From Opitutales bacterium (lineage in GTDB: Bacteria; Verrucomicrobiota; Verrucomicrobiia; Opitutales; PNEW01), in contig CBDCNV010000001.1 of NCBI GenBank assembly GCA_965219535.1, positions 1,140,001-1,172,000 on the forward strand: 32,000 nucleotides of DNA, read 5' to 3'. Shown one piece after another: positions 628 to 27,528 of the stretch. A model generated the notes under the pieces. That model was not told where the DNA came from, searched no databases, and saw nothing but the letters and a program-made list of their open reading frames with translations. How positions within the stretch are numbered: the first letter of the stretch is position 1; every line of letters begins with the position of its first letter. The position numbers and the translations under genes were made by a program.

Positions 628-692
628 TGGAGTGACCCCCAAAAATCGTATCATTTACAGAGAGAGGTTATCGGGATAAACAGATAACCTCA

Positions 693-905
693 ATGAAAAG
701 AAAAAGATACACAACAGAACAGATTATAACAATATTGCGGCAAGCCGATACCGGTAAAACGGTACAGGAAATCTGCCGTGGAAACAACCTGAGCGAACAG
801 ACTTTCTATCGCTGGCGTAAAAAATATGGCAATTTAGAACTTGCCGATGCGAAGCGATTTAAAGAGCTGGAAAAAGAATTCACGAGCGCAAGCGAGAAGG
901 CCTGA
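693..905 (+). CDS. IS3-family OrfA (HTH), ending at an in-frame TGA; the same frame stays open to 986
   Basis: The 70-aa product MKRKRYTTEQIITILRQADTGKTVQEICR..QTFYRWRKKY is typical of transposase OrfA. After TGA 903-905 the frame continues HTELKKLLADQMLKNQVMEETLSKKW*, which is the leucine-zipper part. Confidence 0.75.
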   Translation: MKRKRYTTEQIITILRQADTGKTVQEICRGNNLSEQTFYRWRKKYGNLELADAKRFKELEKEFTSASEKA

Positions 906-973
906 CATACCGAGCTGAAGAAGCTGCTCGCAGATCAAATGCTCAAGAATCAGGTAATGGAGGAAACGCTGTC

Positions 974-980
974 AAAAAAA
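974..980 (+). promoter_or_regulatory. A AAA AAA -1 programmed frameshift heptamer of the IS
   Basis: An A7 run is in phase with orfA (tca aaa aaa tgg tga). The orfB frame opens at 980 in the -1 frame, which is the standard IS3 arrangement. Confidence 0.7.
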
Positions 981-1945
981 TGGTGAGCCCAAAGCAGAAG
1001 AAACGAGTAGTAAAAGCTGCGGCTGAGAAAGGGTTGTGCTCGTTGCGGAGGGCTTGTGCTTATCTCAGCCTGAGTTGGTCAACGTTCAGTTACCGGCCCA
1101 AACAGGCCAGTGAGAAAGCTCAGCGGTTGGTCGAGCGGATTGTGAGCTTGTCCTGGAAACATCCCCGCTACGGTTACCGGCGCATCCGTGCCTTGCTGGT
1201 AAAGGAAGGCTGGACAACAAGCAGGAAGTTTGTCCAGGCGGTACGACGTTCAGAAGGGCTGCAGGTAAAGCCCCCGAAAAAGGGCAGACACCGTCAAGGA
1301 GTCTCTACGGGGTCACCTACTAAAGCAAAGGGTCGCAATCACGTTTGGTCCTGGGACTTTGTCCATGATCGTACAGACAACGGCGGTCCATTAAAGATGA
1401 TGACTCTAATCGATGTACCGAGGAGCTGAAAGCGACGACACTCAAGCGAAGCGAAGACATATACGCGTAAATGCCTGGATATCCGGGTCGCTCGTCAACT
1501 CACCTCAACCGATGTCCTCTCTGTGCTTAGCGAGGCCATTGAAGAGGAGGGACCTCCCAGCTATATCCGTAGTGACAACGGCAGTGAGTTCATTGCTCAT
1601 CAAGTGCAGCAGTGGTTGTCCGGTAATAACATAAAGGCGATCTATATCGATCCGGGCAGTCCCTGGCAAAACGGTTTCATCGAGTCGTTTCACAACCGCT
1701 TACGCGATGAGTGTTTGAACCGTGAAGTGTTGCTCAGCGTGGCTGAAGCGCAAGTGGTAATCGAACAATGGCGTCAGACCTATAACCATGAACATCCCCA
1801 CAGTCGTTTAGGCTTCAAAAGCCCACAAGAGTTTGTCAGATTCCTTTCCGATCTTGGCCGCGTTCGGGCTACGCCCTCACTTCGCCAAGATCTCTCATAT
1901 ACATCAATCCTAAAACCATTAACACCCGGTAACTCTCTCACTTAA
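980..1945 (+). pseudogene. IS3-family OrfB (DDE integrase core) interrupted by in-frame TGA at 1427-1429
   Basis: ORFs 980-1429 and 1523-1945 are in the same frame. The reading ..LKMMTLID VPRS* KRRHSSEAK TYTRKCLD..GPPSYIRSDNGSEF..PGSPWQNGFIESFH is collinear with the neighbouring IS paralogue except for a ~13-codon insertion that carries the stop. Confidence 0.75.
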
Positions 1946-1972
1946 ATTGGTACGAAAAACGGGGTCCGATCA

Positions 1973-3057
1973 AGGTTTTGAGCGAAACGTTGTGGAGTAA
2001 TATTGCCGAGGCTGCGGTGGGGTCGAACATGATTGTAAAGCCAGCGCCAATCTTCGATCACCACGCGGGCTTCGGTCAAAGTCCACAGCTGTTCACGATT
2101 TAGACACTCCTCGCGAAAACGGGCATGGAACGATTCGATGTATCCGTTCTGCCAAGGGCTTCCTGGTTCGATATAGAGGGTATTGATTTTCATCGCAGTT
2201 AGCCAAGTTCGCAATTCCTTTTCAATAAACTCGGAACCGTTATCGCTGCGAATATATTTTGGCGGCCCATGAGGGTCGAGCAGTTTTTGCATGACCCCGC
2301 GCACCTTCTGCGCATTGATATGGCGATCGACATGGATCACCCGGCACTCGCGGGTGTACTCGTCAAGGACGGTGAGCATTTTGAGATTCCCACCGCGGAC
2401 CGTCTTATCGTGGATAAAGTCCCAGGTCCAAACATGGTCGGGATGTTCGGCCTTCGTCGGCAGCCCGGTGGAGACACCCCTGCGCCGGCGTCTTGGCTTG
2501 CGTGGGGGAATCGCCAGGCCCAGTTCACGTCGCAGACCTTGCACGAGCCGTTTACCCACCTGCCAGCCTTCGTCCTTCAACAGCTTCGTGATCTTCGGAT
2601 AGCCCCACCTCGCGTATTGCCGTGATAACCGCCTTACTGCCGCCTTCAGTTTCGTTAGCCAGGCATCAGGATACTTCGCCCGATACGCATAGGTGGAGCG
2701 GTGCAGGTGAAAGTATCGGCACGCTCCACGTATCGAACACTGGCCCCGGGCCACAAGTCTCTCTGCCACTTGCCGCTTGTGCCCAGGGCTTACAGTTTTT
2801 TTTCGAGCGTCTCCTGCACAATCTCTATCCCCAGCAGCTTGTCCGCCAGCATCCGCTTTAACCGCGCGTTCTCCTTCAAAGAGTTCCTTCATCCGCTTGG
2901 CCTGGTTGACATCAATCATCCCAAGTTCACGTTTCCAGCGGTGGAAGGTCTGTTCGCTTATGTTGTTCTCGCGGCATACTTCCAGAATCGTTTTCCCTTT
3001 GTCTGCCTGCCGCAGCATCCGTATCTTCTCTTCGGTTGTATATCTTTTGCCTTTCAT
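1973..3057 (-). pseudogene. Fused OrfA-OrfB transposase with an out-of-frame zipper segment and a truncated C-terminus
   Basis: The HTH N-terminus and the DDE part are in one frame. The segment between them reads as nonsense (FEGERAVKADAGGQAAGDRDCAGDARKK). The adjacent frame reads a canonical LKENARLKRMLADKLLGIEIVQETLEKKL* that ends at an A8 slippery run (2796-2803). Confidence 0.65.
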
Positions 3058-3208: not shown

Positions 3209-3663
3209 GAGGAGTCTAAGGTCGAAGGTCAAAAGTCGAAAGCAGGAAACAAGAAATATTTTACAGGAAGAACGGGAAGGCCGGGGAGAAAGAAGGGGGG
3301 ATAGCCACAAAAGGCACAAAATGAAGATTAGAATATTTATTACATATTAATGGGAAAAAGCGGTAATATTGAACCGCAGAGGCGCAGAGATCGCAGAGAC
3401 AAAGACTGACAAGTGGAGTTGACAATTTACAACTGGGTGGGTGAAACGCGGTGATTGATCTCAATGTCATCCCCCCGCATTTGCGGGTGGGATTGACTAC
3501 GGCTTTCCCTAGCGCTTTTTTTAAATTGTGATTTAAAAAAACGTGTAGGAAACATCCGGCGTCCCGCGGTGGCGGGACTATTGTGATCAATCACCGCATT
3601 TCACCTTAGTTATTCTGGATCTACTATTGCATTCGACTTTAGACATTCGACTTTAGACTCCTC
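3209..3663. repeat. Foldback mosaic element R1 (455 bp) with nested inverted repeats
   Basis: The outer arms are gaggagtctaaggtcgaaggtcaaaagtcgaaag (3209-3242) and tcgactttagacattcgactttagactcctc (3633-3663). An inner 21-bp IR, ggtgaaacgcggtgattgatc (3440-3460) with gatcaatcaccgcatttcacc (3585-3605), has 1 mismatch. GC hairpins lie at 3471-3491 and 3561-3578. Confidence 0.85.
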
Positions 3664-3689: not shown

Positions 3690-3905
3690 TTAATTTTCCC
3701 GATCTTCCCGAGCTTCCTGTAAAACCTCTTTCTTCTCTTGCCTGTCGGCCATAGCCTTGGCGACGGCTGGTGCTTTTGGAAGATCTCGCTGCGCTTTGGT
3801 AGTGCCTTTGAAAGATGTCGCCGCTGGCTCGGTAGTGCCTATCCTACCCGTAAAATCCCTCTTTCTTCTCTTGTGCTTTTTGTGCCTCTTGTGGCTATTC
3901 CTCAC
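3690..3905. repeat. Low-complexity mosaic segment R2 (its ORF is spurious)
   Basis: It has internal direct repeats gtaaaa(c)ctctttcttctcttg (3719-3740 and 3850-3873), an rc copy of the CGCCAAGGCTATGGC module (3741-3770), and a gccacaagaggcacaa word shared with 205-220 and 3301-3322. Confidence 0.75.
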
Positions 3906-3916: not shown

Positions 3917-4156
3917 TCAGTTTTCGACCTTCGCGTCGCGAACATTCTTCGGTGGATCTTTCCACTGAAAGTGGGATTTTCCGGGTTCGTGGGTGGACAT
4001 ATTCCAGGTGGCATGGCCGCGCTTCACGGCTTCGTTCTGAAAGAAGGCCAAATCCTTTTTCGCCTCATCGAGAGCGAGGATTTTAAAGTAGTAAGCAATG
4101 ATCGCCGCTATTAATCCGATAAGACTCAAGAGCATCGCTAGAAATACAAAGGCCAT
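3917..4156 (-). CDS. Hypothetical small membrane-anchored protein (79 aa)
   Basis: There is an N-terminal TM helix MAFVFLAMLLSLIGLIAAIIAYYF followed by a non-repetitive soluble tail. The last codons (RDAKVEN*) overlap a cgaaggtcgaaaac word array. Confidence 0.55.
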   Translation of the reverse strand: MAFVFLAMLLSLIGLIAAIIAYYFKILALDEAKKDLAFFQNEAVKRGHATWNMSTHEPGKSHFQWKDPPKNVRDAKVEN

Positions 4157-4167
4157 GGGGGGAAACT

Positions 4168-4198
4168 AAATTTCTTGCTTAGTGTAAGCAAGAAATTT
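4168..4198. terminator. 13-bp perfect hairpin aaatttcttgctt-agtgt-aagcaagaaattt
   Basis: This is a perfect inverted repeat with a 5-nt loop between two minus-strand genes. A short T-rich stretch follows it on the minus strand. Confidence 0.4.
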
Positions 4199-4368
4199 GT
4201 CAAAAGGTCAAAAAGTCAAAATGTATTTGCGTATACGCGAAGATGAGTAAATGCGATAAAGGGTGAATGCGGAATTATACCGAATACAGGATGATCCTCG
4301 CGGTTGTCGATTATTCACATCTTCACATACTCGCTTGTTCCCGTATACCCATTTCCCCATAGACTGAC
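4199..4368. repeat. Foldback mosaic element R3 (degenerate right arm)
   Basis: The left arm is gtcaaaaggtcaaaaagtcaaaatg (4199-4223). The inner module gcgtatacgcgaagatgagtaaatgcgataaagggtgaatgcggaat resembles those of R6 and R14. The right half is decayed (catttccccatagactgac, 4350-4368). Confidence 0.6.
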
Positions 4369-4415
4369 AAATGATTAAGAAATTTCTAAACCAGAAATTT
4401 CTTCTTCATTTGTCA
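4365..4415 (-). terminator. Long hairpin containing the stop codon of the Ldh_2-type gene
   Basis: tgacaaatga (4365-4374) pairs with tcatttgtca (4406-4415), and aagaaatttct (4377-4387) pairs with agaaatttctt (4393-4403). That gives 10+11 bp with a 2x2 internal loop and a 5-nt loop. The stop codon is at 4375-4377. No U-tract follows. Confidence 0.4.
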
Positions 4416-5484
4416 TGGTCTTAAACCATTCAATGACTTCTTTATGTAGCGGTATGCCGTTTGCTCGACGGTCTTTTTCTTCTTCAGCTTCGAGCATGCC
4501 GGGGTAGATCACGCGTTCCTGGCCGGGGGCGGGTTTGGTTTCCCGGATCATCTTGAGCATGCGATCCATGTTATCTTTAAAGATATCGAGGTCAGTAAAG
4601 GCTTCGATGTCGTAGGCGACGAAATGGTGTTTATGCGCCATACCCGGTTCACCCGGGGATGCGAGCATGCTGGGAATGGAACCTGCCAATATTGAACCGA
4701 GGATTTCTGCTACCATCGCGAGTCCATATCCTTTATGTGAACCCTGTTCTCGCGTGCCGCCCAAGGGGAGTATGTGTACCGGTATGCCGTCCTCGTATTC
4801 AGGTACGTGAACGCGCTCCATTATGGGTACACCATCGGAATCGGCAATCCAGCCTGGTTCCAGCTTTGATCCTATTCTGCGGGCGAGCTCAATTTTATTT
4901 CCTGCGACCGAGCAGGTCGCGGCATCATAGAGAAAAGGCGCTTCATTGCGTGTGGGTGCGGCCAGGGCAATAGGATTTGTTCCAAGCAAGCCCGCTGAGG
5001 AAAAAGTTGGCACCACCTGTGTGCCGGCTGCAGTCGTAACTAAACCTACCATATTGTTTTGAACCGCCTGCATCGCGTGATGGCCGATAGCACCTGAATG
5101 ACCGCTGTTGTAAACGGACACCGCACCGATGCCGATCTGCTTAGCTTTGTCGATCGCTATCTGCATCGCGTGGCGACCGATGATGATGACTAAACCATTA
5201 TCCGCATTGATGTTCGCTGTCCCCGGTTTTTCACGCACAATCTCCCAATTGGACCTCGCGTTGATATGTTTATTTTTGTACTGATAGTGGTAGGCTCTCA
5301 GCATATTAGAGACGCCGTGGCTTTCCACTCCACGCAGGTCAGACGTTACGAGGGTGTCAGCGGCGATCGCGGCGTCTTCCGGAGTCTCACCCATCTTTTC
5401 AAAAAACTCCGTAACCGTTCGGCGGAGTGATTCCTCCGAAACAAGGACTTGATCATCTAGAGGGACTTTGAAGCGTTCTAGCAT
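4375..5484 (-). CDS. Ldh_2-family (malate/L-lactate/sulfolactate-type) NAD(P)H oxidoreductase
   Basis: The 369-aa product has DLRGVESHGVSNMLRAYH, SGHSGAIGHHAMQA and GSHKGYGLAMVAEILG blocks typical of the Ldh_2 fold family. Confidence 0.8.
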   Translation of the reverse strand: MLERFKVPLDDQVLVSEESLRRTVTEFFEKMGETPEDAAIAADTLVTSDLRGVESHGVSNMLRAYHYQYKNKHINARSNWEIVREKPGTANINADNGLVIIIGRHAMQIAIDKAKQIGIGAVSVYNSGHSGAIGHHAMQAVQNNMVGLVTTAAGTQVVPTFSSAGLLGTNPIALAAPTRNEAPFLYDAATCSVAGNKIELARRIGSKLEPGWIADSDGVPIMERVHVPEYEDGIPVHILPLGGTREQGSHKGYGLAMVAEILGSILAGSIPSMLASPGEPGMAHKHHFVAYDIEAFTDLDIFKDNMDRMLKMIRETKPAPGQERVIYPGMLEAEEEKDRRANGIPLHKEVIEWFKTMTNEEEISGLEIS

Positions 5485-5507
5485 AACTCAAAGAAGTTGA
5501 GTTATGC

Positions 5508-5588
5508 AGTCGAAGGTCAAATGTCAAAGGTCAAAAGTAATGTTTTTCAAAAAATCATGCTTTAGACTTTAGACCTTGGACTTTTGAC
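5508..5588. repeat. Foldback element R4 (short form)
   Basis: The left arm is agtcgaaggtcaaatgtcaaaggtcaaaagt (5508-5538) and the right arm is ctttagactttagaccttggacttttgac (5560-5588). Complementarity is about 75 percent in 7-nt register. Confidence 0.75.
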
Positions 5589-5616
5589 GACCAAAATGAG
5601 CTAGCTCATTTTGGTC
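5589..5616 (-). terminator. Perfect 28-bp palindrome centred on the stop codon of the epimerase gene
   Basis: In gaccaaaatgagct|agctcattttggtc the stop codon (cta, rc tag) lies at 5601-5603. The 5' arm in mRNA sense is the last 4 codons of the CDS. Confidence 0.4.
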
Positions 5617-6509
5617 TTGAGCCACCATTGATAGGTCATGGCCAGGCCGTCGTGGATGTTGTAGCGGGGTGTCCAGTCGAGATCGCGACGGGCTTTTTCG
5701 TTGGAGTATACGGAGCTGATTCCCCACCCAAAGGGGAATACGTCAGCCTCGAGTTCATCATAGCGTTTGGGATCGACGTGAATCACTTCCACTTCCTTGT
5801 TCATGACTTTACTCAGGGTTTGCAAATAACCGTTAACGGTTATCATCTCATTCGCACCGATGGTATAGATTTGGCCTGCTGCCTGTTTTTGACTTGGAAC
5901 AGCGGCAAACGCGGCGGCCAGATCATCGACGTGGATAAAGTGGAGGAGCCGTTGACCATCGCCGGGGATAATTAATTTACGTCCGTGAGTGATACGGGCA
6001 AAGAAAGTATGCTCGCGCTGTTTCAAGTTATTGTGCGGACCGTAGACATAGACCAGCCGCAGTGAGGTTGTCGGCAGCCCGAGCTCCGCGTGTACTTTTA
6101 AGAGAAGATCTTCACAGGCGATCTTGTCCCTGGCGTAGTCACTGGCTTCCGGTCTTCTGTCGAGGGCGGAATCTTCAAAGATCGGCCTGATTTCGGAGGG
6201 CGCGTAAACGGAAGTCGAGCTGCAGAAGACATAATTACCGATCTGACCATTGAGAATATTAATAACATCTTCAACGACGTTCGGGGTATAACCCGAAATG
6301 TCATAGACGACATCAAATGATTTACCCTTCAATGCCTTTTCGACCTGATTTCGGTCATCGCGATCGGCGCTGAGACGATTGACTTCATCCGGAAGCTGTG
6401 CCTCGCTCAAACCCCGGTTCAAAATAGTTACCTTATGTCCCTGTTTAATTAAATATTCAACAAGGTGTAACCCAATAAATTGGGTGCCGCCTAATACTAG
6501 TGATTCCAT
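5601..6509 (-). CDS. NAD-dependent epimerase/dehydratase family (extended SDR) protein
   Basis: The N-terminus MESLVLGGTQFIGLHLVEYL carries the Rossmann GxxGxxG motif. I place the start at ATG 6509. The track ORF starts at a TTG (6551) inside repeat arm R5, and those extra 14 aa are repeat-encoded. Confidence 0.8.
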   Translation of the reverse strand: MESLVLGGTQFIGLHLVEYLIKQGHKVTILNRGLSEAQLPDEVNRLSADRDDRNQVEKALKGKSFDVVYDISGYTPNVVEDVINILNGQIGNYVFCSSTSVYAPSEIRPIFEDSALDRRPEASDYARDKIACEDLLLKVHAELGLPTTSLRLVYVYGPHNNLKQREHTFFARITHGRKLIIPGDGQRLLHFIHVDDLAAAFAAVPSQKQAAGQIYTIGANEMITVNGYLQTLSKVMNKEVEVIHVDPKRYDELEADVFPFGWGISSVYSNEKARRDLDWTPRYNIHDGLAMTYQWWLKTKMS

Positions 6510-6537
6510 AAAACGTAACCAGAGGTAACGTTTTATG

Positions 6538-6638
6538 GAGTCGAAAGTCAAAGGTCAAAAGTCGAAGGAAATGATGCTAAAAGCTTTACCACTTTCACAC
6601 AATTCCGCATTCGACCTTTGACTTTCGACCTTCGACTC
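6538..6638. repeat. Foldback element R5 in a divergent intergenic region
   Basis: The left arm is gagtcgaaagtcaaaggtcaaaagtcgaagg (6538-6568) and the right arm is ttcgacctttgactttcgaccttcgactc (6610-6638). Confidence 0.85.
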
Positions 6639-6651
6639 TTTCAATAAAGTC

Positions 6652-7530
6652 ATGATCAAAAGTAAAAACGACTACCCTACGACAGAAGAACTGGTGGAAC
6701 AGGTGAGGGAGGTGGGCTATTGCCTGATTGAAGGTATTATACCTGAAGATAAATTAGAGCCGATTAAAAAGGAAATTTCGGACGCGGCTCATGCAAATTG
6801 CAGCGATTATGCGTCTGAAAACATAACGCACCTGTCCGGGACGATTAATTATACCCAAAGTTTTGCGGAGTATGTCGCACACCCGCGTATCCTGGCACTG
6901 GTGGACACATTTTTCGGCCCTCACGCGCGCGTCTCCTCGACGACGACGACGATCAATGAACCGGGAAATAAGCGCGGCATGTGGCATTCCGACTGGCCAT
7001 TCAACCAGAGGAACGCGGGTCACATTCCGGTACCCTATCCCGACTTGATGGTTCACATCACTTCGATCTGGATGATGTCCGCCTTCACTAAAGAGAATGG
7101 AGGGACTTTGATTCGGCCGAAAAGCCATAAGCTTAATTACAATCCGAGTGTGGACTATCCGGAAAATAAAGCAAAGACATCGGATAAAAAAGCGATGGCG
7201 GAAGGGTGGACGACGGTAGCCTGCGATCCTTTAGATGATGAAATAAATGCCACCGGTCCTGCCGGCAGTGTGCTCTTTTTTGACAGCCGCTTATGGCACG
7301 CCACGGCGCCCAACACTTCCACCGATCCTCGCGTCGCGCTGATTGTGCGTTACGCCCCCTGGTGGATAAATTTAAAATCCTGGAGACCCGGTTCGATTGA
7401 TAGAAAAATAATTTCCGAAGAGCCCGGCATTTTTGAAAACGTGCTCGCCCCACTACCCGTAGCCGTCTACGAAAAATTGCCCGAAGTAACGAAGCCACTG
7501 TTCAGGCATTGGGTTGAGGAAAACTCGTAG
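6652..7530 (+). CDS. Phytanoyl-CoA dioxygenase (PhyH) family Fe(II)/2-oxoglutarate oxygenase
   Basis: The 292-aa product has WHSDWPF (HxD-type metal site) and LWHATAPN (distal His), which are typical of PhyH. Confidence 0.75.
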   Translation: MIKSKNDYPTTEELVEQVREVGYCLIEGIIPEDKLEPIKKEISDAAHANCSDYASENITHLSGTINYTQSFAEYVAHPRILALVDTFFGPHARVSSTTTTINEPGNKRGMWHSDWPFNQRNAGHIPVPYPDLMVHITSIWMMSAFTKENGGTLIRPKSHKLNYNPSVDYPENKAKTSDKKAMAEGWTTVACDPLDDEINATGPAGSVLFFDSRLWHATAPNTSTDPRVALIVRYAPWWINLKSWRPGSIDRKIISEEPGIFENVLAPLPVAVYEKLPEVTKPLFRHWVEENS

Positions 7531-7538
7531 TTTTCCTC
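7516..7538 (+). terminator. 9-bp hairpin with the stop codon in the loop
   Basis: In gaggaaaac-tcgta-gttttcctc, TAG lies at 7528-7530. The 5' arm is the last codons (VEEN) of the CDS. Confidence 0.4.
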
Positions 7539-7723
7539 GTCGAATGTCTAAGGTCCAAAGTGAAAACGCGTGAAAGCGATAAAGCGTGAATGCGGATTAA
7601 TTCAGGGTGCAGGATCCAAGGAAATCTTCTTAATTTCCACATTTCCGCATCATCGCATATACTCATTCTCGCATATACGCATTTTCTTATTCCACCTTTG
7701 ACATTAGACCTTAGACTTTAGAC
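7539..7723. repeat. Foldback mosaic element R6 (full nested form)
   Basis: The heptamer arm gtcgaatgtctaaggtccaaagtg is at 7539-7562. The octamer array gtgaaaac|gcgtgaaa|gcgataaa|gcgtgaat|gcggatta is at 7560-7600. The loop contains ggtgcaggatccaaggaaatc. The octamer array cgcatcat|cgcatata|ctcattct|cgcatata|cgcatttt is at 7647-7686. The heptamer arm ccacctttgacattagaccttagactttagac is at 7692-7723. Confidence 0.9.
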
Positions 7724-7733
7724 AAATGAACCC

Positions 7734-8726
7734 ATGGGTTCATTAGTCGAAAAGCCTATCGGGCGAAGTGGTTTGAGGATGAGTGCGATTGCGCTGGGGG
7801 CGGGGACTTACGGGCGTGAGATCGACGAGGAGGCGTCCTGGAAGGTACTCGATTATGCGACGGAAAAAGGAATAACTTTTCACGACAACGCGGAGATGTA
7901 TGGCGGGGGCAATACCTACGAAAAACGCAAAGCGGATTATGGCACTACGGAAGTGCTGGAGGCATCGACCGAGATGTATTCGGGGGAGAAAATATTCTCA
8001 AGATGGATGAAAAATCGCGGTTGCCGTGATGATGTTGTCATCTGCACAAAAGTCAGCAGTGGGAACAGCGCGGAAAATATTAAGAAGCAGATGGCGGCCA
8101 GCCTCGAGCGGCTGGAAGTCGACTGTGTGGATGTTTACATGTTACATTCTCCCGATGACAGCGTGCCGATTGAAGAAACGATGGATGCGCTCAACGAGGA
8201 AGTAAAAGCCGGGCATACGAAGGTGATTGGGTGCAGCAATTTTTCGGGCGCGCAATTACGGGACGCGCTCGCGGTCAGCGCGAAGAAAGGTTACGCCCGT
8301 TTTGAAATTACCGAGCCCCGCTATAACCTCGCGGATAGAAAATCGGAGACGGATGATTTTCCCATTTGCCGGGAGGAAGAGATAACGGTTATGCCCTACA
8401 GTCCATTAGCCGCGGGATTTCTCACCGGTAAATATACACCGGACCGTTCACAGTTTCCCAAGGGCGCGCGCTTTGATCTTTCACCCGGCCACGCCGACAT
8501 TTACTTCAACGATCATAATTTTCGGGTGGTCGAACACTTGCGCAAAAAAGCCGAGGAGATGGGACTACCCATGGTGCGTCTCGCTATGGCTTGGGTGATG
8601 ACTAATCCCGATGTCACCGCCACCCTCATCGGCGCCCGAACAACCGCGCATATCGACAACGCTCTCCTCGCCGCAGAAATGGGACTCGATCCCGCATTAC
8701 GCAAAGAAATGAGTAGATGGGAATAG
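7734..8726 (+). CDS. Aldo/keto reductase family oxidoreductase
   Basis: The 330-aa product has IGRSGLRMSAIALG, DNAEMYG, DVYMLHSPD and GCSNF blocks typical of AKRs. Confidence 0.85.
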   Translation: MGSLVEKPIGRSGLRMSAIALGAGTYGREIDEEASWKVLDYATEKGITFHDNAEMYGGGNTYEKRKADYGTTEVLEASTEMYSGEKIFSRWMKNRGCRDDVVICTKVSSGNSAENIKKQMAASLERLEVDCVDVYMLHSPDDSVPIEETMDALNEEVKAGHTKVIGCSNFSGAQLRDALAVSAKKGYARFEITEPRYNLADRKSETDDFPICREEEITVMPYSPLAAGFLTGKYTPDRSQFPKGARFDLSPGHADIYFNDHNFRVVEHLRKKAEEMGLPMVRLAMAWVMTNPDVTATLIGARTTAHIDNALLAAEMGLDPALRKEMSRWE

Positions 8727-9303
8727 GAGTCGAAAGTCGAAGGTCTAAGGTCGAATGCGGAATCTAATAAATCTGAGAAAGATTAGGAATTAGTTTCTAT
8801 TTTGGTATCTGATTTATCTTGTTTAATACGGCGCATAAGTGCAGCGATGCCTTTCGAGATATTTCTACTAGCTTCTCTTAAGTTTACTGCATCGTTTTCT
8901 ACTATATAATTAAGATCTTCAGCAATATAGAGCATATTTCTTAATTCTCCACAGGAGCCTTTTGCGATGCTAAGAAAACGATAGAACTCAGCGTCTCCTT
9001 TTCTTTCATAACCCTCCGAAATATTATTCATTACTGATACACTTGATCTTTGGATTTGATCTTTAAAGCCATAGTCTTTTGACGCCGGTGTTGACCCACC
9101 AAACGATTTATAAATAGTCGTGACTAAAGTTCTTGCTTCTTGCCAGATTCTCAGATCTTCGAAGGATTTTACTGGGTTCATAATATGATAAATGTTGATG
9201 TTGAATTAATGAGATCTATATAGAATTTAATTCGGTAAAAAATACACTAAACTTAATAGTGATTATTTCGCCTTCGACTTTAGACCTTCGACTTTCGACA
9301 TTC
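8727..9303. repeat. Foldback element R7 carrying a cargo gene
   Basis: The left arm is gagtcgaaagtcgaaggtctaaggtcgaatgcggaat (8727-8763) and the right arm is ttcgccttcgactttagaccttcgactttcgacattc (9267-9303). A ~27-bp core is complementary with 1 mismatch. The arms enclose ORF 8783-9181. Confidence 0.9.
8783..9181 (-). CDS. Four-helix-bundle protein (23S rRNA intervening-sequence protein family)
   Basis: The 132-aa product has FEDLRIWQEA, SVMNNISEGYERKGDAEFYRFLSIAKGSCGELRNMLYIAEDL, the signature layout of this family. Confidence 0.85.
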   Translation of the reverse strand: MNPVKSFEDLRIWQEARTLVTTIYKSFGGSTPASKDYGFKDQIQRSSVSVMNNISEGYERKGDAEFYRFLSIAKGSCGELRNMLYIAEDLNYIVENDAVNLREASRNISKGIAALMRRIKQDKSDTKIETNS

Positions 9304-9325
9304 AAATCGCTCACGCGATTTGAAT
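9300..9325 (-). terminator. 11-bp perfect hairpin with the stop codon in the loop
   Basis: In attcaaatcgc-tcac-gcgatttgaat the stop (tca, rc tga) lies at 9311-9313. The arm at 9315-9325 is the last codons (IQIA) of the ADH gene. Confidence 0.4.
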
Positions 9326-10297
9326 TACAGCGCTCCCATTAAACTTTCCATCGCGTAGAGCATTGAGTGCATCATTGGTTTTATACAGGGGAAAAACGGA
9401 TACTTCCGTTTGAACGGGAATGCTTGGAGCCAGTTTTAAAAAATCTTCTCCATCCTTGCGCGTGAGATTGGCAACTGACCGGATCTGCCGTTCTTCCCAT
9501 AAATCTTTATAGGGAAAGGAGGGGATGTCGCTCATATGGATACCTGCACAAACGACAATCCCGCCTTTGCCCACCGCTTTCAGTGCAGCCGGTACTAAAG
9601 CGCCGATCGGAGCAAAAATGATGGCGGCGTCGAGTTTGCACGGTGCTTTATCTTCTGAACACCCCGCCCAGACGGCACCGAGTTTTCGAGCAAAGTCCTG
9701 GCCGGTGCTATCACCCCGTCGCGTAAACGCATAAATTTCTTTTCCCTCAAATACCGCGACTTGTGCGATAATATGCGCTGCTGCACCAAAGCCGTAAAAA
9801 CCAATTTTTTTTGCATTACCTGTCATTCGGTAGGCGCGATAGCCAATTAATCCGGCACAGAGCAGGGGGGCAACCTGCAAGTCGGAATAGTCATCAGCTA
9901 GGGGAAAACAAAAATCTTCTCTTGCCACGGTGTATTCAGCGTAACCGCCATCCTTTTGATAACCGGTAAAGGTCGGGTCATCGCAGAGGTTTTCACGGCC
10001 CTCGTCACAATAAGGGCATGACCCACAAGTTCCACCCAGCCATGGCACGCCTACACGCGTTCCCTTATCAAATCGTGTTGCGCTATCTCCCCGTTCTTCT
10101 ACCGTGCCGACAATCTGATGGCCCAGCACTAAAGGAAGTTTTGGTTCCATTAATTCTCCATCAACAATATGCAAATCAGTCCGGCACACCCCGCAGACCC
10201 TTACTTTGAGCAGCACTTCCTTGTCACGGGGTCTAGGGACGGGCAGCTCTATTAATTTCAATGGACTTCCCAATTTTTGTAGGGACATCGCTTGCAT
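9311..10297 (-). CDS. Zinc-dependent alcohol dehydrogenase (MDR) family protein
   Basis: The 328-aa product has GVCRTDLHIVDGE, GHQIVGTV, the structural-zinc Cys cluster CGSCPYCDEGRENLC, and a GFGAAAH Rossmann motif. Confidence 0.85.
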   Translation of the reverse strand: MQAMSLQKLGSPLKLIELPVPRPRDKEVLLKVRVCGVCRTDLHIVDGELMEPKLPLVLGHQIVGTVEERGDSATRFDKGTRVGVPWLGGTCGSCPYCDEGRENLCDDPTFTGYQKDGGYAEYTVAREDFCFPLADDYSDLQVAPLLCAGLIGYRAYRMTGNAKKIGFYGFGAAAHIIAQVAVFEGKEIYAFTRRGDSTGQDFARKLGAVWAGCSEDKAPCKLDAAIIFAPIGALVPAALKAVGKGGIVVCAGIHMSDIPSFPYKDLWEERQIRSVANLTRKDGEDFLKLAPSIPVQTEVSVFPLYKTNDALNALRDGKFNGSAVIQIA

Positions 10298-10316
10298 GAT
10301 TTGAATTGTAAGAGCA

Positions 10317-10591
10317 GAAGGTCGAAAGTCAAAAGTCGAAAGGGTTGAAAACCGGTAGATTTTCAGTGTTAGGTGTTAAGTAAGAATGGGGGTAAATGCG
10401 GCATGAGTGTATGTCATTATGCGTGTATGTGGATGGTCACTTGGGTCTTATTCGGCTATGGCATTAGCGACGGATGATTGTAGCTGAGTAGATGTAATTA
10501 TCCTTAAATAATCCGCATTATCGCATAATCGCATTCACGCGTATTCATAATCTCGCATTCTACCTTTGACATTAGACCTTAGACTTTAGAC
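10317..10591. repeat. Foldback mosaic element R8 (full nested form)
   Basis: The left arm is gaaggtcgaaagtcaaaagtcgaaaggg (10317-10344). The right octamer array is cgcattat|cgcataat|cgcattca|cgcgtatt|cataatct|cgcattct. The right heptamer arm is tacctttgacattagaccttagactttagac (10561-10591). It contains a degenerate rc copy of the GGCTATGGC module. Confidence 0.85.
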
Positions 10592-10601
10592 AAAAGAACC
10601 C

Positions 10602-11726
10602 ATGGATTCTATTGTCGAAAAGCCTCTATTAATCATCGATGGTCACTTGGATATGGGGTTTAATGCGCTTTTTAATCAACGTGATCTTACACAGTCGATC
10701 CAGGTTTTGCGTGAGCGCGAGGACTCTCTAAAGAACAAACTGGGACCCTATGAAACCGATCCGGGAACGGTTACGGTTTCACTTCCGGAATTAAGGCGAG
10801 GTTGTGTTGGCATCATGCTGGCTACGATAATGGTACGGGTCCAAGTGCCGTGGCCAGGAAGACCGAATTGCCATAATGCGGTGCGCACGCAGCCGACAGC
10901 CTATGCGCGCGGCCAATCCCATCTCGCTTATTACCAGGCTCTGGAAAAGGAAGGAGAAGTATCCTGGATTAAAACACTCGAAGACTTGGACTCGAGTGTA
11001 GCCGCCTGGGAAAACCCCACCCCGGATACTCCGGTCGGTCTAATCCTTTCGATGGAAAGCGCCGATCCCATCCTCGGGCCCGACCAGGTAGCTCAATGGT
11101 GGGAGGATGGACTGCGCGCGGTCGGCATTACTCATTTCGGAGCGAATTCTTACGGGCACGGGACCGGTACGCCGGGAGGACTTTACCCAACCGCATACCC
11201 TCTTTTGGATGCCTTTGCGGATACCAATATGATCATCGATCTCACGCATGCCGCTGATACCGCGTTCTGGCAAATTCTCGATTATTGGGAGGGACCGGTA
11301 CACGCCAGCCATTGTAACTGTCGCGCGCTCGTGCCCGGTCAACGCCATCTCAGTGACGAGATGATAAAAGCGCTCTGCGAACGCGGTGGTGTCATGGGCA
11401 TGGTATTCGCTGAGTCCATGTTGAGCCCCCAGTGGGATTGGGATGATCCGAGTACGCATTACACCAAAGCCACGCGACCGATGAAAGCGGTCGTGGAACA
11501 TGTCGACCACATCTGTCAACTCACGGGTAATACGGATCATGTAGCGATCGGCACGGATCTCGACGGTGGATTTGGGCGAGAAATTGCACCTATTGACATG
11601 GATACGGTCAACGACCTGCAAAAATTTTTAAACATACTACGTGATCGGGGATACAGCGAAGAGGATGTAGAAAAAATAGCCCATGGAAATTTGTTACAAC
11701 TCTTCCGCAACGCATGGAGCAAATAA
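10602..11726 (+). CDS. Peptidase M19 (membrane/renal dipeptidase) family protein, paralogue 1
   Basis: The 374-aa product has IDGHLD (HxD), SMESAD, IIDLTHAAD, ASHCNCRAL and IGTDLDGGFG blocks collinear with M19 metal-ligand positions. Confidence 0.8.
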   Translation: MDSIVEKPLLIIDGHLDMGFNALFNQRDLTQSIQVLREREDSLKNKLGPYETDPGTVTVSLPELRRGCVGIMLATIMVRVQVPWPGRPNCHNAVRTQPTAYARGQSHLAYYQALEKEGEVSWIKTLEDLDSSVAAWENPTPDTPVGLILSMESADPILGPDQVAQWWEDGLRAVGITHFGANSYGHGTGTPGGLYPTAYPLLDAFADTNMIIDLTHAADTAFWQILDYWEGPVHASHCNCRALVPGQRHLSDEMIKALCERGGVMGMVFAESMLSPQWDWDDPSTHYTKATRPMKAVVEHVDHICQLTGNTDHVAIGTDLDGGFGREIAPIDMDTVNDLQKFLNILRDRGYSEEDVEKIAHGNLLQLFRNAWSK

Positions 11727-11728
11727 TA

Positions 11729-12829
11729 ATGGCCGATAAACCCATGCTCATTGTAGACAGCCACCTCGACCTGGCCTTTAACGCGATCCAGATTAATCGG
11801 GACATCACACAACAGGCGGCCGTTGTTCGCACCCATGATCATCAATCCACTCTCTATCGTTTTGGAAGTTCGACTGTTACTTTTCCCGAGCTGAGAAAAG
11901 GAAAAGTAGGAATCGTGTTCGGGACGGTTATGTCTCGAATCGATCCCACCGATTGGCTGGGGCGCACCGGGGGGATGTATTCACAAGCGCAATGTTACGG
12001 AGTAGGTCATGGACATTACTCTTTTTACAAGGCGATGGAACGGGAGGGGATACTTAAATTTATCCAAAATGCCGAAGATCTCGATGCGATGGTCGAGGCC
12101 TGGGAAAATCCCTCGGCTGATACTCCTTTTGGTTTGGTTCTCGCGATGGAAAGCGCGGATCTTATCTTAGACCCTGACGAGGTCTCCAAATGGTACGACC
12201 GCGGATTACGTATCGTCAGTATTTCTCATTACGGCAACAACACCTATGCCCAAGGTACTGATACCGAGGGCGGCCTCTTACCCAAGGGGAAGCCTCTTCT
12301 AGACGCATTGAAAGCAAGTGGTATCATTGTAGATATGACTCATACAACAGATCAGAGTTTTTGGGAAATATTAGACTATTATGATGGGCCGGTTGCCGCT
12401 TCCCATCACAATTGCCGGGCCCTCGTCCCGGGTCAGCGACAGTTAACCGATGATATGATTAAGGCAATTGTCGAACGCAATGGCGTGATTGGAGCCGCAT
12501 TTGATGTATGGATGCTCGATCCCGATTGGACAAGGGGTGTTCGCGGGTGTGATCAAACGACGAAAGCTACGCTTGAAACGGTAGTCGATCATATCGACCA
12601 CATTGTCCAACTAGTGGGCAGCGCTAATCACTGTGGAATCGGTACCGATCTCGACGGGGGTTACGGGCAGGAGCAATCGCCCCGCGATCTCAATACGATT
12701 GCCGACCTGCAAAAACTCCCCAGCATTTTTAAAAAGCGCGGCTATAATGAAGAAGATATATCCAAATTTCTTTCAAAAAATTGGATTAATTTTTTGAAAG
12801 AAACTTGGAGTCAAAAGTCGAAGGTCTAA
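11729..12829 (+). CDS. Peptidase M19 family protein, paralogue 2
   Basis: It is collinear with paralogue 1 (roughly half of positions identical by eye). I prefer ATG 11729 (MADKPMLIVDSHLD), which aligns with KPLLIIDGHLD, over the track start at 11714. The last codons, QKSKV*, are encoded by repeat arm R9. Confidence 0.8.
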   Translation: MADKPMLIVDSHLDLAFNAIQINRDITQQAAVVRTHDHQSTLYRFGSSTVTFPELRKGKVGIVFGTVMSRIDPTDWLGRTGGMYSQAQCYGVGHGHYSFYKAMEREGILKFIQNAEDLDAMVEAWENPSADTPFGLVLAMESADLILDPDEVSKWYDRGLRIVSISHYGNNTYAQGTDTEGGLLPKGKPLLDALKASGIIVDMTHTTDQSFWEILDYYDGPVAASHHNCRALVPGQRQLTDDMIKAIVERNGVIGAAFDVWMLDPDWTRGVRGCDQTTKATLETVVDHIDHIVQLVGSANHCGIGTDLDGGYGQEQSPRDLNTIADLQKLPSIFKKRGYNEEDISKFLSKNWINFLKETWSQKSKV

Positions 12830-13002
12830 AGTCGAAAGTGGAAACGTGTGAATGCGGATTATTTCAAGGTGCAGGTTCCAAGGAAATCATGGTAGTTACC
12901 ACATTTACGCATCAACGCTTACACGCATGTTCGCGTAAGAGGATGTCGGGCTCTACCCTCGGTACGCATTACCTTTGACTTTCGACCTTCGACCTTCGAC
13001 TC
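12808..13002. repeat. Foldback mosaic element R9
   Basis: The left arm is gagtcaaaagtcgaaggtctaaagtcgaaagtg (12808-12840). The loop sequence ggtgcaggttccaaggaaatc matches R6 at 20 of 21 positions. The module gaggatgtcgggctctaccctcggtacgc is at 12939-12967. The right arm is acctttgactttcgaccttcgaccttcgactc (12971-13002). Confidence 0.9.
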
Positions 13003-13012
13003 TTTTTAAATC

Positions 13013-13792
13013 ATGCGCTTAAAAAACAGAGTAGCCTTAATTACTGGAGCTTCGCGGGGCTTGGGAAAGGCGATGGCCATTTCATTCGCTAAAGAGGGAG
13101 CGTCGGTTGGGGTCAATTACGTTAAAAGCCGTGAACAGGCTGAATTGATATGTGAGGAGATTGTAGAATCGGGTGGAAAAGCGGTCCCCGTTCAAGCTGA
13201 TGTTTCCAATGCCGATGAAGTAAAGGCGATGGTGAAAATAGTAGAAGATGTCTATGGCAATATTGATATCCTCGTAAATAACGCCGGGCTCTTTGTCCCG
13301 ACCAATTTAATTGAAGACCCACCATCCAATATCGACCGCTTATACGAGGTAAATATAAAAGGGGTTATTTACACTGTACAAGCTGTAGTAGGTAAGATGA
13401 AAGAGAGGAAGTACGGGAGAATATTGAATCTCAGTTCTATCGCGGGATTGGGCACTGCCTTTGCTGGAACCAGCGGTTACGCGGCGACAAAAGCGGCAGT
13501 AATTTCACTCACTAAACGGATGGCGCTGGAGTTAGGGGAGTTTGGAATCACCGTTAACAGCATTGCACCCGGATTTATAAAAACCGATATGGCACTGCGT
13601 GACGGCCTGACTGAAGTTAAACCCGAAGATTTAAAAGTCGTCGCAGAGAGGGCGATGTTGAATCGCGTGGGGGAACCCGAAGATATCGCCTATCCCGCAC
13701 TCTTTCTCGTCTCCGATGAGTCCAGTTTTATCACCGGACAGACGCTCACCGTAGACGGCGGGCGAATGGATTTTCTCTCCCATTCGGCTTAA
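13013..13792 (+). CDS. SDR family oxidoreductase (FabG-like)
   Basis: The 259-aa product has TGASRGLGKA, NNAG and YAATKAA (YxxxK). Confidence 0.85.
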   Translation: MRLKNRVALITGASRGLGKAMAISFAKEGASVGVNYVKSREQAELICEEIVESGGKAVPVQADVSNADEVKAMVKIVEDVYGNIDILVNNAGLFVPTNLIEDPPSNIDRLYEVNIKGVIYTVQAVVGKMKERKYGRILNLSSIAGLGTAFAGTSGYAATKAAVISLTKRMALELGEFGITVNSIAPGFIKTDMALRDGLTEVKPEDLKVVAERAMLNRVGEPEDIAYPALFLVSDESSFITGQTLTVDGGRMDFLSHSA

Positions 13793-13843
13793 TACTGGAG
13801 AGCCTAAGGTCCCGCCGTCGCTAAGGGCTATGGCGTGGCAAGC

Positions 13844-14079
13844 GGAAGGTCTAAAGTCGAAAGCGGAATACTAAGGAGCTGAAAGTCGAAGGTTGATGAA
13901 AATTATTAAGCACTAATTTTTAAGTGAAGAGTGTTATTGGCCATCTTCGAATTTCGACTCTTTGCTTTTTATTAATTCTCTTACTTGAAGCTTAACGATT
14001 AACACCTGAAATCTTTGGCTTAACACTAAATTTACACAGTTTTTCCAGCCTTCGACCTTTGACTTTCGACCTTCGACTC
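13844..14079. repeat. Composite foldback element R10
   Basis: Left-type arrays are ggaaggtctaaagtcgaaagcgg (13844-13866) and aggagctgaaagtcgaaggttg (13874-13895). An internal right-type arm is cttcgaatttcgactcttt (13945-13963). GTGTTAAG-type words lie at 13906-13940 and 13990-14033. The terminal right arm is ccttcgacctttgactttcgaccttcgactc (14049-14079). Confidence 0.8.
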
Positions 14080-14095
14080 TTTCAGTATATCCCCC

Positions 14096-21776: not shown

Positions 21777-22106
21777 CGAGTAACCTTACTTATGTCCCCC
21801 TGCTGGGGGCTAATAGCCTAGTTCACTAATATGATTTATATTTATCTTCGTTTTCGACCACGCTTGCCACATCGTAGACTACTGCGAAGACGGGTCTGCC
21901 TCTTAGTCCATCCAGTTATTAATAGAATAGATAGGTGGAACGCGGTGCCTGACGGCCTTCGCCAAGGCTATGGCGGTCAGGACTTCGATGAGCTCAGCTG
22001 AATCGCAGCCCGCTCCACCATGGATTGCAAGATAATCTATATTTGCCAGGGACAAAGACCAATACGACGAATCCATACGCTCTTACTTTACACCGTACTG
22101 TTACAT

Positions 22107-22292: not shown

Positions 22293-23258
22293 TTAAGTGA
22301 GAGAGTTACCGGGTGTTAATGGTTTTAGGATTGATGTATATGAGAGATCTTGGCGAAGTGAGGGCGTAGCCCGAACGCGGCCAAGATCGGAAAGGAATCT
22401 GACAAACTCTTGTGGGCTTTTGAAGCCTAAACGACTGTGGGGATGTTCATGGTTATAGGTCTGACGCCATTGTTCGATTACCACTTGCGCTTCAGCCACG
22501 CTGAGTAACACTTCACGGTTCAAACACTCATCGCGTAAGCGGTTGTGAAACGACTCGATGAAACCGTTTTGCCAGGGACTGCCCGGATCGATATAGATCG
22601 CCTTTATGTTATTACCGGACAACCACTGCTGCACTTGATGAGCAATGAACTCACTGCCGTTGTCACTACGGATATAGCTGGGAGGTCCCTCCTCTTCAAT
22701 GGCCTCGCTAAGCACAGAGAGGACATCGGTTGAGGTGAGTTGACGAGCGACCCGGATATCCAGGCATTTACGCGTATATGTCTTCGCTTCGCTTGAGTGT
22801 CGTCGCTTTCAGCTCCTCGGTACATCGATTAGAGTCATCATCTTTAATGGACCGCCGTTGTCTGTACGATCATGGACAAAGTCCCAGGACCAAACGTGAT
22901 TGCGACCCTTTGCTTTAGTAGGTGACCCCGTAGAGACTCCTTGACGGTGTCTGCCCTTTTTCGGGGGCTTTACCTGCAGCCCTTCTGAACGTCGTACCGC
23001 CTGGACAAACTTCCTGCTTGTTGTCCAGCCTTCCTTTACCAGCAAGGCACGGATGCGCCGGTAACCGTAGCGGGGATGTTTCCAGGACAAGCTCACAATC
23101 CGCTCGACCAACCGCTGAGCTTTCTCACTGGCCTGTTTGGGCCGGTAACTGAACGTTGACCAACTCAGGCTGAGATAAGCACAAGCCCTCCGCAACGAGC
23201 ACAACCCTTTCTCAGCCGCAGCTTTTACTACTCGTTTCTTCTGCTTTGGGCTCACCAT
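22293..23258 (-). pseudogene. OrfB of IS copy 2, with the same in-frame TGA (22809-22811)
   Basis: Track ORFs 22293-22715 and 22809-23258 are identical to those of copy 1. Confidence 0.75.
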
Positions 23259-23332
23259 TTTTTTGACAGCGTTTCCTCCATTACCTGATTCTTGAGCATT
23301 TGATCTGCGAGCAGCTTCTTCAGCTCGGTATG

Positions 23333-23545
23333 TCAGGCCTTCTCGCTTGCGCTCGTGAATTCTTTTTCCAGCTCTTTAAATCGCTTCGCATCGGCAAGTT
23401 CTAAATTGCCATATTTTTTACGCCAGCGATAGAAAGTCTGTTCGCTCAGGTTGTTTCCACGGCAGATTTCCTGTACCGTTTTACCGGTATCGGCTTGCCG
23501 CAATATTGTTATAATCTGTTCTGTTGTGTATCTTTTTCTTTTCAT
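23333..23545 (-). CDS. OrfA (HTH) of IS copy 2
   Basis: Its 70-aa product is identical to that of 693-905. Confidence 0.75.
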   Translation of the reverse strand: MKRKRYTTEQIITILRQADTGKTVQEICRGNNLSEQTFYRWRKKYGNLELADAKRFKELEKEFTSASEKA

Positions 23546-23610
23546 TGAGGTTATCTGTTTATCCCGATAACCTCTCTCTGTAAATGATACGATTTTTGGG
23601 GGTCACTCCA

Positions 23611-25351: not shown

Positions 25352-25444
25352 CTCTTCGTCTTCGTCTTCGTCTGCCTCTTCGTCCATCGTATCGTAAGGA
25401 GTAAAAAAGCGGACGAAGACGAAGAGTCAGACGAAGACGAAGAT
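25352..25444. repeat. Foldback element R12 built from GACGAAG words
   Basis: The left arm is ctcttcgtcttcgtcttcgtctgcctcttcgtcc (25352-25385) and the right arm is ggacgaagacgaagagtcagacgaagacgaagat (25411-25444). The loop is 25 nt. Confidence 0.9.
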
Positions 25445-27281: not shown

Positions 27282-27287
27282 TTGAAT

Positions 27288-27521: not shown

Positions 27522-27528
27522 TATAAAC

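Follow-up and report, generated by a model that had tools for sequence, protein, structure and literature searches.

Why does a small gene of the family that is carried by the intervening sequences (IVSs) of 23S rRNA lie between two convergent protein-coding genes, enclosed by inverted repeats? The question is raised by a 571-nt element (positions 8729-9299) in a 32,000-nt stretch of genome from an Opitutales bacterium, which we call the window. The IVSs and their conserved open reading frame (ORF) have been known since about 1990; to our knowledge, no function has been assigned to the encoded protein, and we know of no account of the origin or the movement of the elements. We conclude that the element in the window is an IVS-type cassette: a gene for a four-helix-bundle (4HB) protein set between inverted arrays of a tandem heptamer, in a layout that is typical of the 4HB family and is the same as that described for the 23S IVS of Coxiella, here between two protein-coding genes. 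What is new is an S23p-bearing IVS of this kind outside rRNA, with word-array arms that are common to the host genes around it.

The cassette consists of two arms, the 4HB ORF, a leader and a trailer, and it is flanked by the genes for an aldo/keto reductase (AKR; 7734-8726, + strand) and a zinc alcohol dehydrogenase (ADH; 9311-10297, − strand), which converge on it; ADH is codirectional with the 4HB gene and lies upstream of it. Arm 1 (8729-8756, + strand) is made of four tandem heptamers (GTCGAAA, GTCGAAG, GTCTAAG and GTCGAAT), and arm 2 (9272-9299, − strand) of four more (GTCGAAA, GTCGAAG, GTCTAAA and GTCGAAG), so that both are fourfold repeats of GTCNAAR. Between them lie the 26-nt trailer (8757-8782, − strand), which runs from the 4HB stop codon to arm 1 and is weakly conserved among paralogous cassettes; the 4HB gene itself (8783-9181, − strand, 132 aa); and the AT-rich 90-nt leader (9182-9271, − strand), which runs from arm 2 to the ATG. 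In the sense of the 4HB mRNA, arm 2 is the 5′ arm and arm 1 the 3′ arm. Complementarity outruns the heptamers on the inner side, reaching 8763 in arm 1 and beginning at 9265 in arm 2: an inverted repeat search returned 8729-8763 against 9265-9299, 35 nt that are 91% complementary, with 501 nt between them. The GC content of the insert is 32-37%, against 49-55% in the flanks. When the RNA of 8722-9308 (− strand) was folded, the arm-arm stem closed both the minimum-free-energy and the centroid structure (z = −2.9).

A first-pass annotation of the window had assigned the ORF at 8783-9181 to the four-helix-bundle family of the 23S IVSs and had described the surrounding repeats as an IVS-like, stem-bounded arrangement outside any rRNA gene, whose arms are at the same time the arrays 3′ of AKR and ADH. 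Each of these points is borne out. The ORF matches PF05635 (23S_rRNA_IVP) with 119.2 bits (cut-off 33.8) and TIGR02436 (four helix bundle protein) with 109.8 bits (cut-off 24), which identifies its product as a four-helix-bundle protein of the S23p/23S_rRNA_IVP type; arm 1 starts 2 nt past the AKR stop codon and arm 2 lies 11 nt past that of ADH; and the insert is bounded by 35-nt arms in a 32-kb window in which an Rfam scan found nothing that reaches the gathering score, so the cassette is not in a 23S rRNA helix. As to the extent of the arms, the annotated 27-bp core with one mismatch stands, being the first 27 nt of the repeat with a single mismatch, whereas the outer limits proposed for it, 8727 and 9303, overshoot the repeat by 2-4 nt.

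The protein aligns with PDB entry 2GSC (Xcc0516, five chains) over residues 7-120 with an E value of 1e-13, and that relative has been described as a pentameric toroid (PMC4990558). Of the conserved motif GxxRxxxSxxxNxxE (PMC3936711), the residues R45-x3-S49-x3-N53-x2-E56 are present and the leading G is replaced by Q42. The ORF has a GC content of 36%, and of 29% at third codon positions. With a dN/dS of 0.11-0.24, it is under purifying selection. Selection extends to the 90-nt leader as well. The leader occurs nowhere but upstream of 4HB genes, 66-79 of its 90 positions are kept between orthologous as well as paralogous cassettes even at an ORF dS of 0.45-1.0, and it may hold a promoter of the cassette's own or a 5′ UTR. 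No intrinsic terminator was found in 8600-9450, and sigma-70 promoter-like sites occur there at chance level, a consensus that is uninformative for verrucomicrobial promoters. A search of viral contigs returned no relatives of the protein.

The likeness to the rRNA elements extends from the gene to the arms. In the S23p-bearing 23S IVSs of Coxiella burnetii and Leptospira, the same family occupies the loop and the termini are complementary over ~28 bp (PMC4990558). The C. burnetii IVS described by Warrier et al. is 428 nt long and has a 28-bp terminal stem with one mismatch and a bulge; two to three tandem GACAGAT heptamers adjoin the S23p ATG, cleavage by RNase III falls within the stem, at the first of these repeats, and the GC content is 36% in a genome of 42.5% (PMC4990558; the heptamers are noted there for the Coxiella IVS only). 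The window cassette resembles it in having tandem heptamers of variable copy number as the 5′ arm beside the ATG, a size within ~430-570 nt and a GC content below that of the host. The window cassette differs in lying between protein-coding genes and outside an rRNA helix (9, 25 or 45), in having a conserved 90-nt leader between arm and ATG, in carrying an ORF that purifying selection maintains, unlike the decaying one of Coxiella, and in having arm words that are common to host-gene ends; RNase III cleavage is predicted here by analogy.

The arm words recur throughout the window. The word GTCGAAGGTC, with at most one mismatch, occurs 31 times where 1.5 occurrences are expected, and chance is therefore the wrong null for the arms around the 4HB gene. 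Eight heptamer and two octamer array pairs bracket intergenic regions in the 32 kb; they are paired as a + array followed by a − array, eight consecutive intergenic regions are bracketed in this way from 3.2 to 14.1 kb, and the octamer variant, GTCAAAAG, shows the same paired bracketing at 27.3-28.6 kb. Because array pairs bracket spacers generally, enclosure alone is expected for anything that sits in a spacer. In the sense of the host genes, a (YTTNGAC)n array ends 10-30 nt ahead of the start codon and a complementary (GTCNAAR)n array begins 2-12 nt past the stop codon. Host genes sit between a − array and a + array, whereas 4HB genes sit between a + array and a − array: the 4HB gene has a polarity opposite to that of the host genes and occupies a compartment that is otherwise intergenic spacer. 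The identity of its arm pair is 0.93, against a mean of 0.88 for partner arms in the window and 0.78 for non-partner arms.

From 4375 to 14095, the arrangement follows a polarity rule per transcription unit: in the sense of the mRNA, three to four copies of YTTNGAC stand at the 5′ end, and two to four copies of GTCNAAR stand at the 3′ end, 0-12 nt past the stop codon, the exception being the SDR gene, with its 3′ array 56 nt past the stop. The units that have both arrays are the epimerase, PhyH, AKR (5′ array 7696-7723), ADH (5′ array 10321-10341), a two-gene M19 operon and the SDR gene; the Ldh_2 gene and the sigma-54 activator gene have the 5′ array only. The genome is unusual in this respect, in that nearly every gene in a 10-kb stretch has a pyrimidine-type array before its start and a complementary array after its stop.

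Relatives in other phyla reveal that inverted arrays go with the 4HB gene itself. Our survey comprised 80 loci with 4HB relatives of 44-80% identity, one genome per species, from Bacteroidales, Flavobacteriia, Ignavibacteria, lineages of the candidate phyla radiation (CPR: Parcubacteria, Saccharibacteria and relatives), Lentisphaeria, Gammaproteobacteria and others; this sample, to which six plasmid copies were added, is the clade nearest the query and covers a part of the whole family. Local alignment of the 300 nt upstream with the reverse complement of the 300 nt downstream gave a median of 16, against 9 for permuted partners and 9 for a direct-orientation control. With 200-nt flanks, a flanking inverted-repeat score of at least 15 was reached by 53% of 75 4HB genes vs. 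5% of 131 non-adjacent genes (Mann-Whitney p = 1e-16 for 4HB vs. control scores), and by 4.5% of 134 genes adjacent to the 4HB genes at the same loci. Tandem arrays are ninefold denser within 160 nt of a 4HB gene than elsewhere (4.66/kb vs. 0.52/kb). The inverted word arrays are a gene-specific, family-wide property of 4HB genes across phyla.

The words themselves vary while the layout is kept. The arms of the surveyed genes are tandem words such as GGGCTAAG, GTAGAATA, GGGTCAAC, GTTTATAAA, GGTGCAC, AAGATTAC and GTCNAAR, among others, with a period of 7, 8 or 9 nt and a median of ~4.5 copies (range 2.5-28), and they cluster with the protein clades. Median distances are 24 nt from the end of the upstream array to the ATG and 9 nt from the stop codon to the start of the downstream array. 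On the sense strand, purines predominate in the upstream word at 48 of 59 loci; the upstream word is the reverse complement of the downstream word, with at most one mismatch, in 23 of 50 loci vs. 2.4 after permutation of the partners. The gene upstream is codirectional at 68 of 72 4HB loci, compared with 135 of 163 baseline gene pairs (p = 0.011). An independent sample, more distant plasmid copies (34-42% identity) of cultured organisms, has the layout in six cases out of six: Nostoc sp. ATCC 53789, N. punctiforme PCC 73102 (pNPUN01, 1617-1982), Trichormus variabilis ATCC 29413 (plasmid C), Riemerella anatipestifer, Anabaena sp. 90 (in the cas6/cas4 gap) and Picosynechococcus PCC 7003 (in the cmr2/cmr3 gap); several lie inside cas operons. 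All six are codirectional with both neighbours, in gaps too short for an internal promoter. The presence of 4HB genes inside cas loci was noted by Zhang et al. with no mention of repeats (PMC3936711). An Rfam scan of 19 related loci found no rRNA or other known RNA, and no sampled cassette is a true rRNA IVS.

In the cyanobacterial plasmid copies L175-L178 (Nostoc punctiforme, Trichormus, Anabaena and Picosynechococcus), the upstream words contain a Shine-Dalgarno-like GGAG or AAGG (CAGGAGT, GGAGATAAGGAGAT), and the downstream arm reads like an anti-Shine-Dalgarno sequence (CTCCT, CCTCC); pairing of such arms could therefore also control translation.

Within the lineage of the window, the cassette can be followed through orthologous and paralogous sites. 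The closest relatives of the protein in genome databases are from Opitutales metagenome-assembled genomes; on long-read metagenome contigs, the exact protein occurs at this locus only. The order AKR/4HB/ADH is conserved in lineages in which the 4HB protein is 97% (L003) and 89% (L004) identical to that of the window. Between L004 and the window, dS is 0.45 for the cassette and 0.59 for AKR, a similarity which argues that the cassette is old and has been inherited at this site. Six further 4HB sites were recovered in the lineage, among them the M28/Nmad3 spacer (L008, L011), L012, L091 and two in L092, one of the latter from a subfamily that is 41% identical; paralogous copies are 74-80% identical in protein. 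On these related Opitutales contigs, all seven 4HB sites lie between a + array and a − array; copies without flanking inverted arrays, which the first-pass annotation had named as evidence against its proposal, were not encountered among them. No other Pfam-recognisable gene was found inside a foldback on the lineage contigs examined. An alignment of cassettes from three sites extends through array, leader, ORF, trailer and array, and homology ends at the arrays. L091 has two nested array pairs around the 4HB gene, and in L011 and L092 the arrays are doubled on one side. Of the three Opitutales subfamilies of 4HB genes, each has a word of its own immediately beside the gene: GTCGAAG, GTCAAAAG or GTTTTAG/GTGTTAA.

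The last of these words belongs to a divergent subfamily (41% identical) in L092, with an ORF at ~4296-4643 and arms at 4150-4178 and 4637-4672 that are nested inside an GTCAAAAG octamer pair; GTTTTAG/GTGTTAA words are also found in the window at ~10355-10385, 13995-14030 and 23940-23965.

The Nmad3/M28 spacer offers a comparison of filled and empty states. L008 and L011 carry a paralogous cassette there between heptamer arms, and the site is empty in the window (28264-28600, between the gene of an Nmad3-domain protein at 27529-28263 and that of an M28 peptidase at 28596-29621), with octamer arms; the window's empty site contains arrays of the octamer GTCAAAAG, AGTGAAC x4.7 (28295-28327) and a near-perfect CCCTGAA x9.3 (28383-28447). 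We considered the view that empty foldbacks are deletion derivatives of cassettes and rejected it, in that the leader is found only upstream of 4HB genes and tblastn detected no 4HB or GxxExxY remnant in the other foldbacks of the window. An ORF at 3261-3590, in the foldback 3214/3631, has no Pfam match and is probably no gene.

Comparison with L003 suggests that the unit has been exchanged recently. The 4HB ORFs of the window and L003 are 98.7% identical, with a dS of 0 and with all five differences non-synonymous, whereas the adjoining AKR genes are 91% identical with a dS of 0.40; five differences were found where 35 were expected (P = 2e-10). The cassette interior at 8747-9226 matches L003 9911-10453 at 95-100% in 60-nt windows, and the break in identity coincides with the outer edge of the AKR-side array. 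This pattern suggests a recent cassette exchange between the two lineages. Together with the array-bounded paralogous cassettes and the site that is filled in relatives and empty in the window, it is consistent, if indirect, evidence that what lies between the arrays is swapped or copied as a unit whose junctions are the arrays. At the other end of the cassette, comparison of L003 9590-9900 with window 9300-10600 reveals that ADH and its 5′ array have been deleted, leaving the last ~25 nt of the gene; the cassette arm that adjoins the deletion has two heptamers, down from four. The remnant includes a hairpin that in the window spans the ADH stop codon immediately outside arm 2 (9300-9325; a perfect 11 bp with a 4-nt loop, ATTCAAATCGC / GCGATTTGAAT) and that is kept in L003 despite the loss of ADH.

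A second, unrelated family has the same design. The first-pass annotation had noticed an interrupted GxxExxY gene near position 327, and this assignment is correct: the gene at 327-635 belongs to PF13366 (GxxExxY), and its 3′ end is cut by an IS3-family insertion at ~634. In metagenome relatives (loci L093-L172), GCCGCAAAAAGGCACAAAAGGCACAAAA stands directly ahead of the ATG and its reverse complement directly past the stop codon, and GGCRCAAAA words are kept across proteins that are only 52-65% identical. GxxExxY genes share the layout of 4HB genes with a different word of their own. The window also holds an inverted pair of GxxExxY words at 3304-3321 and 3869-3895, 547 nt apart; tblastn found no ORF remnant between them.

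How might such a unit live between protein-coding genes? We lean, with modest confidence, towards the reading that it is an IVS-type, stem-bounded cassette carried on the transcript of the upstream gene, processed by RNase III and spread through its arrays; we are far surer that it is an IVS-type cassette than that RNase III processes it. Under this reading, read-through from the codirectional ADH gene (or, on the other strand, from AKR) would yield a transcript with both arms, and pairing of the arms would close the cassette with a stem of ~28-35 bp. RNase III acts on RNA duplexes of such length, as has been demonstrated for rRNA IVSs. By analogy, it would cleave the stem, and the cassette RNA would be released and no longer tied to the host message; such release would make cassettes tolerable inside rRNA and operons. 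Since the ends of most host genes in this lineage carry the same words, any + and − arrays would be homologous, and the interior could be copied to another foldback by recombination at the arrays.

Several observations weigh against this account. The arm mismatches at 45 loci bear no signature of wobble pairing (54 are G-U-compatible in the sense orientation, 54 in the antisense, and 99 are transversions), and the arm changes between the window and L004 are uncompensated among the few orthologues at hand (window, L003, L004). The leader may contain a promoter, in which case the 5′ arm would lie outside the 4HB mRNA. The arms are ordinary for this genome: partner arms are modestly more alike than non-partner arms, and host genes are flanked by the same arrays. 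Pairing into a stem leaves unexplained both that the words are tandem and that their cores are conserved among proteins that are 45-60% identical. Finally, the exact protein is present at a single locus, which means no recent burst of copying.

Some of these features would be accounted for if the words were tandem binding sites of the 4HB protein that they bracket, a proposal that we regard as unlikely. The protein, a homopentameric ring in the solved relative, would bind ~4-5 tandem words in RNA or DNA, the cassette would be an autoregulated unit of protein plus sites, and the complementarity of the arms would be a by-product of inverting the sites. Such a proposal fits the tandem arms, for which a stem has no need, with their periods of 7-9 nt and median of ~4.5 copies; the five chains and pentameric toroid of the solved relative 2GSC (PMC4990558); the retention of word cores while proteins diverge to 45-60% identity, with words clustering by clade; the three Opitutales subfamilies, each with a different direct word; the persistence of GGCRCAAAA in GxxExxY cassettes across proteins of 52-65% identity; and the absence of a G-U bias among arm mismatches. 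Binding, however, is a prediction from the layout of the words, and whole cassettes that share an ancestor would likewise show covariation of word and protein; the copy number ranges from 2.5 to 28 and is not fixed at five; arrays that abut start and stop codons in operons would fit a role in RNA equally well; and the Coxiella element has retained its stem although its ORF is decaying. The arrangement recalls the REPtron, a RAYT gene set between inverted copies of the REP sequence, other copies of which are spread over the intergenic regions. Common to both are a small gene between inverted short repeats and a repeat that is scattered intergenically, often at the 3′ ends of genes. The proteins differ, being a four-helix bundle or a PD-(D/E)XK (GxxExxY) protein and not an HUH tyrosine (Y1) RAYT transposase, with PF05635 the only match of the window protein, and the repeats of the window are tandem 7-9-nt words, not single palindromic hairpins. 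A wider form of the idea, which we put forward as speculation of similarly low probability, is that 4HB pentamers and GxxExxY PD-(D/E)XK proteins each act on their own 7-9-nt word as a recognition site, and that in this Opitutales lineage these words have spread to most host-gene ends. If true, a tiny IVS-type cassette would have given rise to a system that marks transcripts or DNA across the whole genome, proteins that are not transposases would have become partners of a repeat as in REPtrons, and the origin of rRNA IVSs would be explained as well.

Two further explanations strike us as quite improbable. The arrays could be ordinary 3′ modules of AKR and ADH, and a horizontally acquired small gene could have landed in the spacer between them. 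Eight consecutive intergenic regions of the window are bracketed, most with no gene inside; the 4HB arm pair is not unusually well matched; the GAATGCGGAAT motif beside arm 1 also follows + arrays in empty foldbacks; and the 4HB leader is missing from empty foldbacks, all of which would be in keeping with such an accident. It would not lead one to expect 4HB genes inside foldbacks at seven of seven sites in the lineage, a gene-specific association in other phyla (53% vs. 5%) where host genes have no such arrays, six of six plasmid examples, or an arm type that tracks the cassette at the Nmad3/M28 site, with heptamers when filled and octamers when empty. Equally improbable is a small DNA transposon or miniature inverted-repeat transposable element (MITE), with 4HB as a passenger gene and the arm words as sites for a transposase acting in trans. 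Terminal inverted repeats made of repeated short motifs, presence and absence that vary across sites and lineages, a foreign-looking composition and the IS3-family transposases in the window agree with it, and foldback elements and MITEs likewise have inverted arms that bound a short, AT-rich, intergenic segment unlike the host. The cassette differs from them in having a conserved gene under selection. There is no target-site duplication at the arms (the flanks, GGGAATAGGA / ATTCAAATCG, have no common direct repeat), and there are no near-identical copies elsewhere; the passenger is of one protein family throughout, with arm words that change from clade to clade; the IS3 ends are unrelated to the arm words; and the cassettes point the same way as the upstream gene in 94% of loci, a bias that random transposition would not create. 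An integron cassette was dismissed on inspection, with no formal test: no integrase is nearby, and the repeats are found on both sides, inverted, with no single attC.

The cassette can be compared with two other systems. TAACTGA heptamers occur as direct repeats near start codons in Beggiatoaceae, Cyanobacteria and Bacteroidetes (MacGregor, PMC4679880). These are two to six tandem, gene-oriented heptamers that end a few nt before the start, and the 5′ arrays of host genes in the window are similar; the TAACTGA repeats are direct only, with no paired inverted array at the other gene end and no link to 4HB or GxxExxY genes. Avd, an accessory protein of diversity-generating retroelements, is of the same Pfam family as the 4HB protein (PMC10053308). 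The window 4HB gene differs in standing alone, with no template/variable repeat pair nearby; Pfam scans of 23 of the window ORFs of at least 100 aa and the gene tables of syntenic loci revealed no reverse transcriptase near it. A full-text search, which lay outside subscription literature and database family notes, found no account in which PF05635 or PF13366 genes are characterised by inverted word arrays; the pattern may have been noticed before.

Our results place the 23S IVS in a wider setting, as one placement of a general unit in which a 4HB gene lies between inverted arrays of a tandem 7-9-nt word. This unit is found in spacers and operons of Verrucomicrobiota, Bacteroidota, Cyanobacteriota, Ignavibacteria, CPR lineages (Parcubacteria, Saccharibacteria and relatives) and Gammaproteobacteria, and its layout recurs in GxxExxY, a small family unrelated to the first. 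The old puzzle of the IVS is thereby turned into concrete questions of RNase III processing, protein-word binding and array-mediated exchange, for which Nostoc punctiforme, Trichormus variabilis, Picosynechococcus and Riemerella are cultured and tractable carriers.

The window contains further repeats. A second level of arrays is nested in the foldbacks, where words of the GTGAATGCGGA type follow the + array and CGCAT-rich words (CGCATATAC, CGCATTATCGCATAATCGCATTC) precede the − array; such arrays lie within the intergenic regions 7531-7733, 10298-10601, 12800-13012 and 27282-27528, and the nested motif, with sites at 4263, 7586, 12848 and 27353, has six occurrences vs. 0.7 expected. Hexamer arrays of a different word family have the same paired layout: TCTTCG x5.3 (25353-25384) is separated by 27 nt from its inverted partner GACGAA x5.3 (25412-25443) in the lipase/GNAT spacer, and a third array, GACGAA x5.3 (26264-26295), lies 3′ of the GNAT gene. 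IS3-family insertion sequences in the window occupy 636-3057, where one copy is split by a second copy in the opposite orientation, and 22293-23560, where the ORFs have Pfam scores identical to those of the copy at 636-3057; no word arrays are tied to any of them. A near-palindromic module, GCCAAGGCTATGGC, often within ...GTCGCCAAGGCTATGGCCGGCAGGC..., has five intergenic occurrences vs. 0.17 expected, at 181-194, 229-242, 3748-3761 (− strand), 21961-21974 and 26128-26141.

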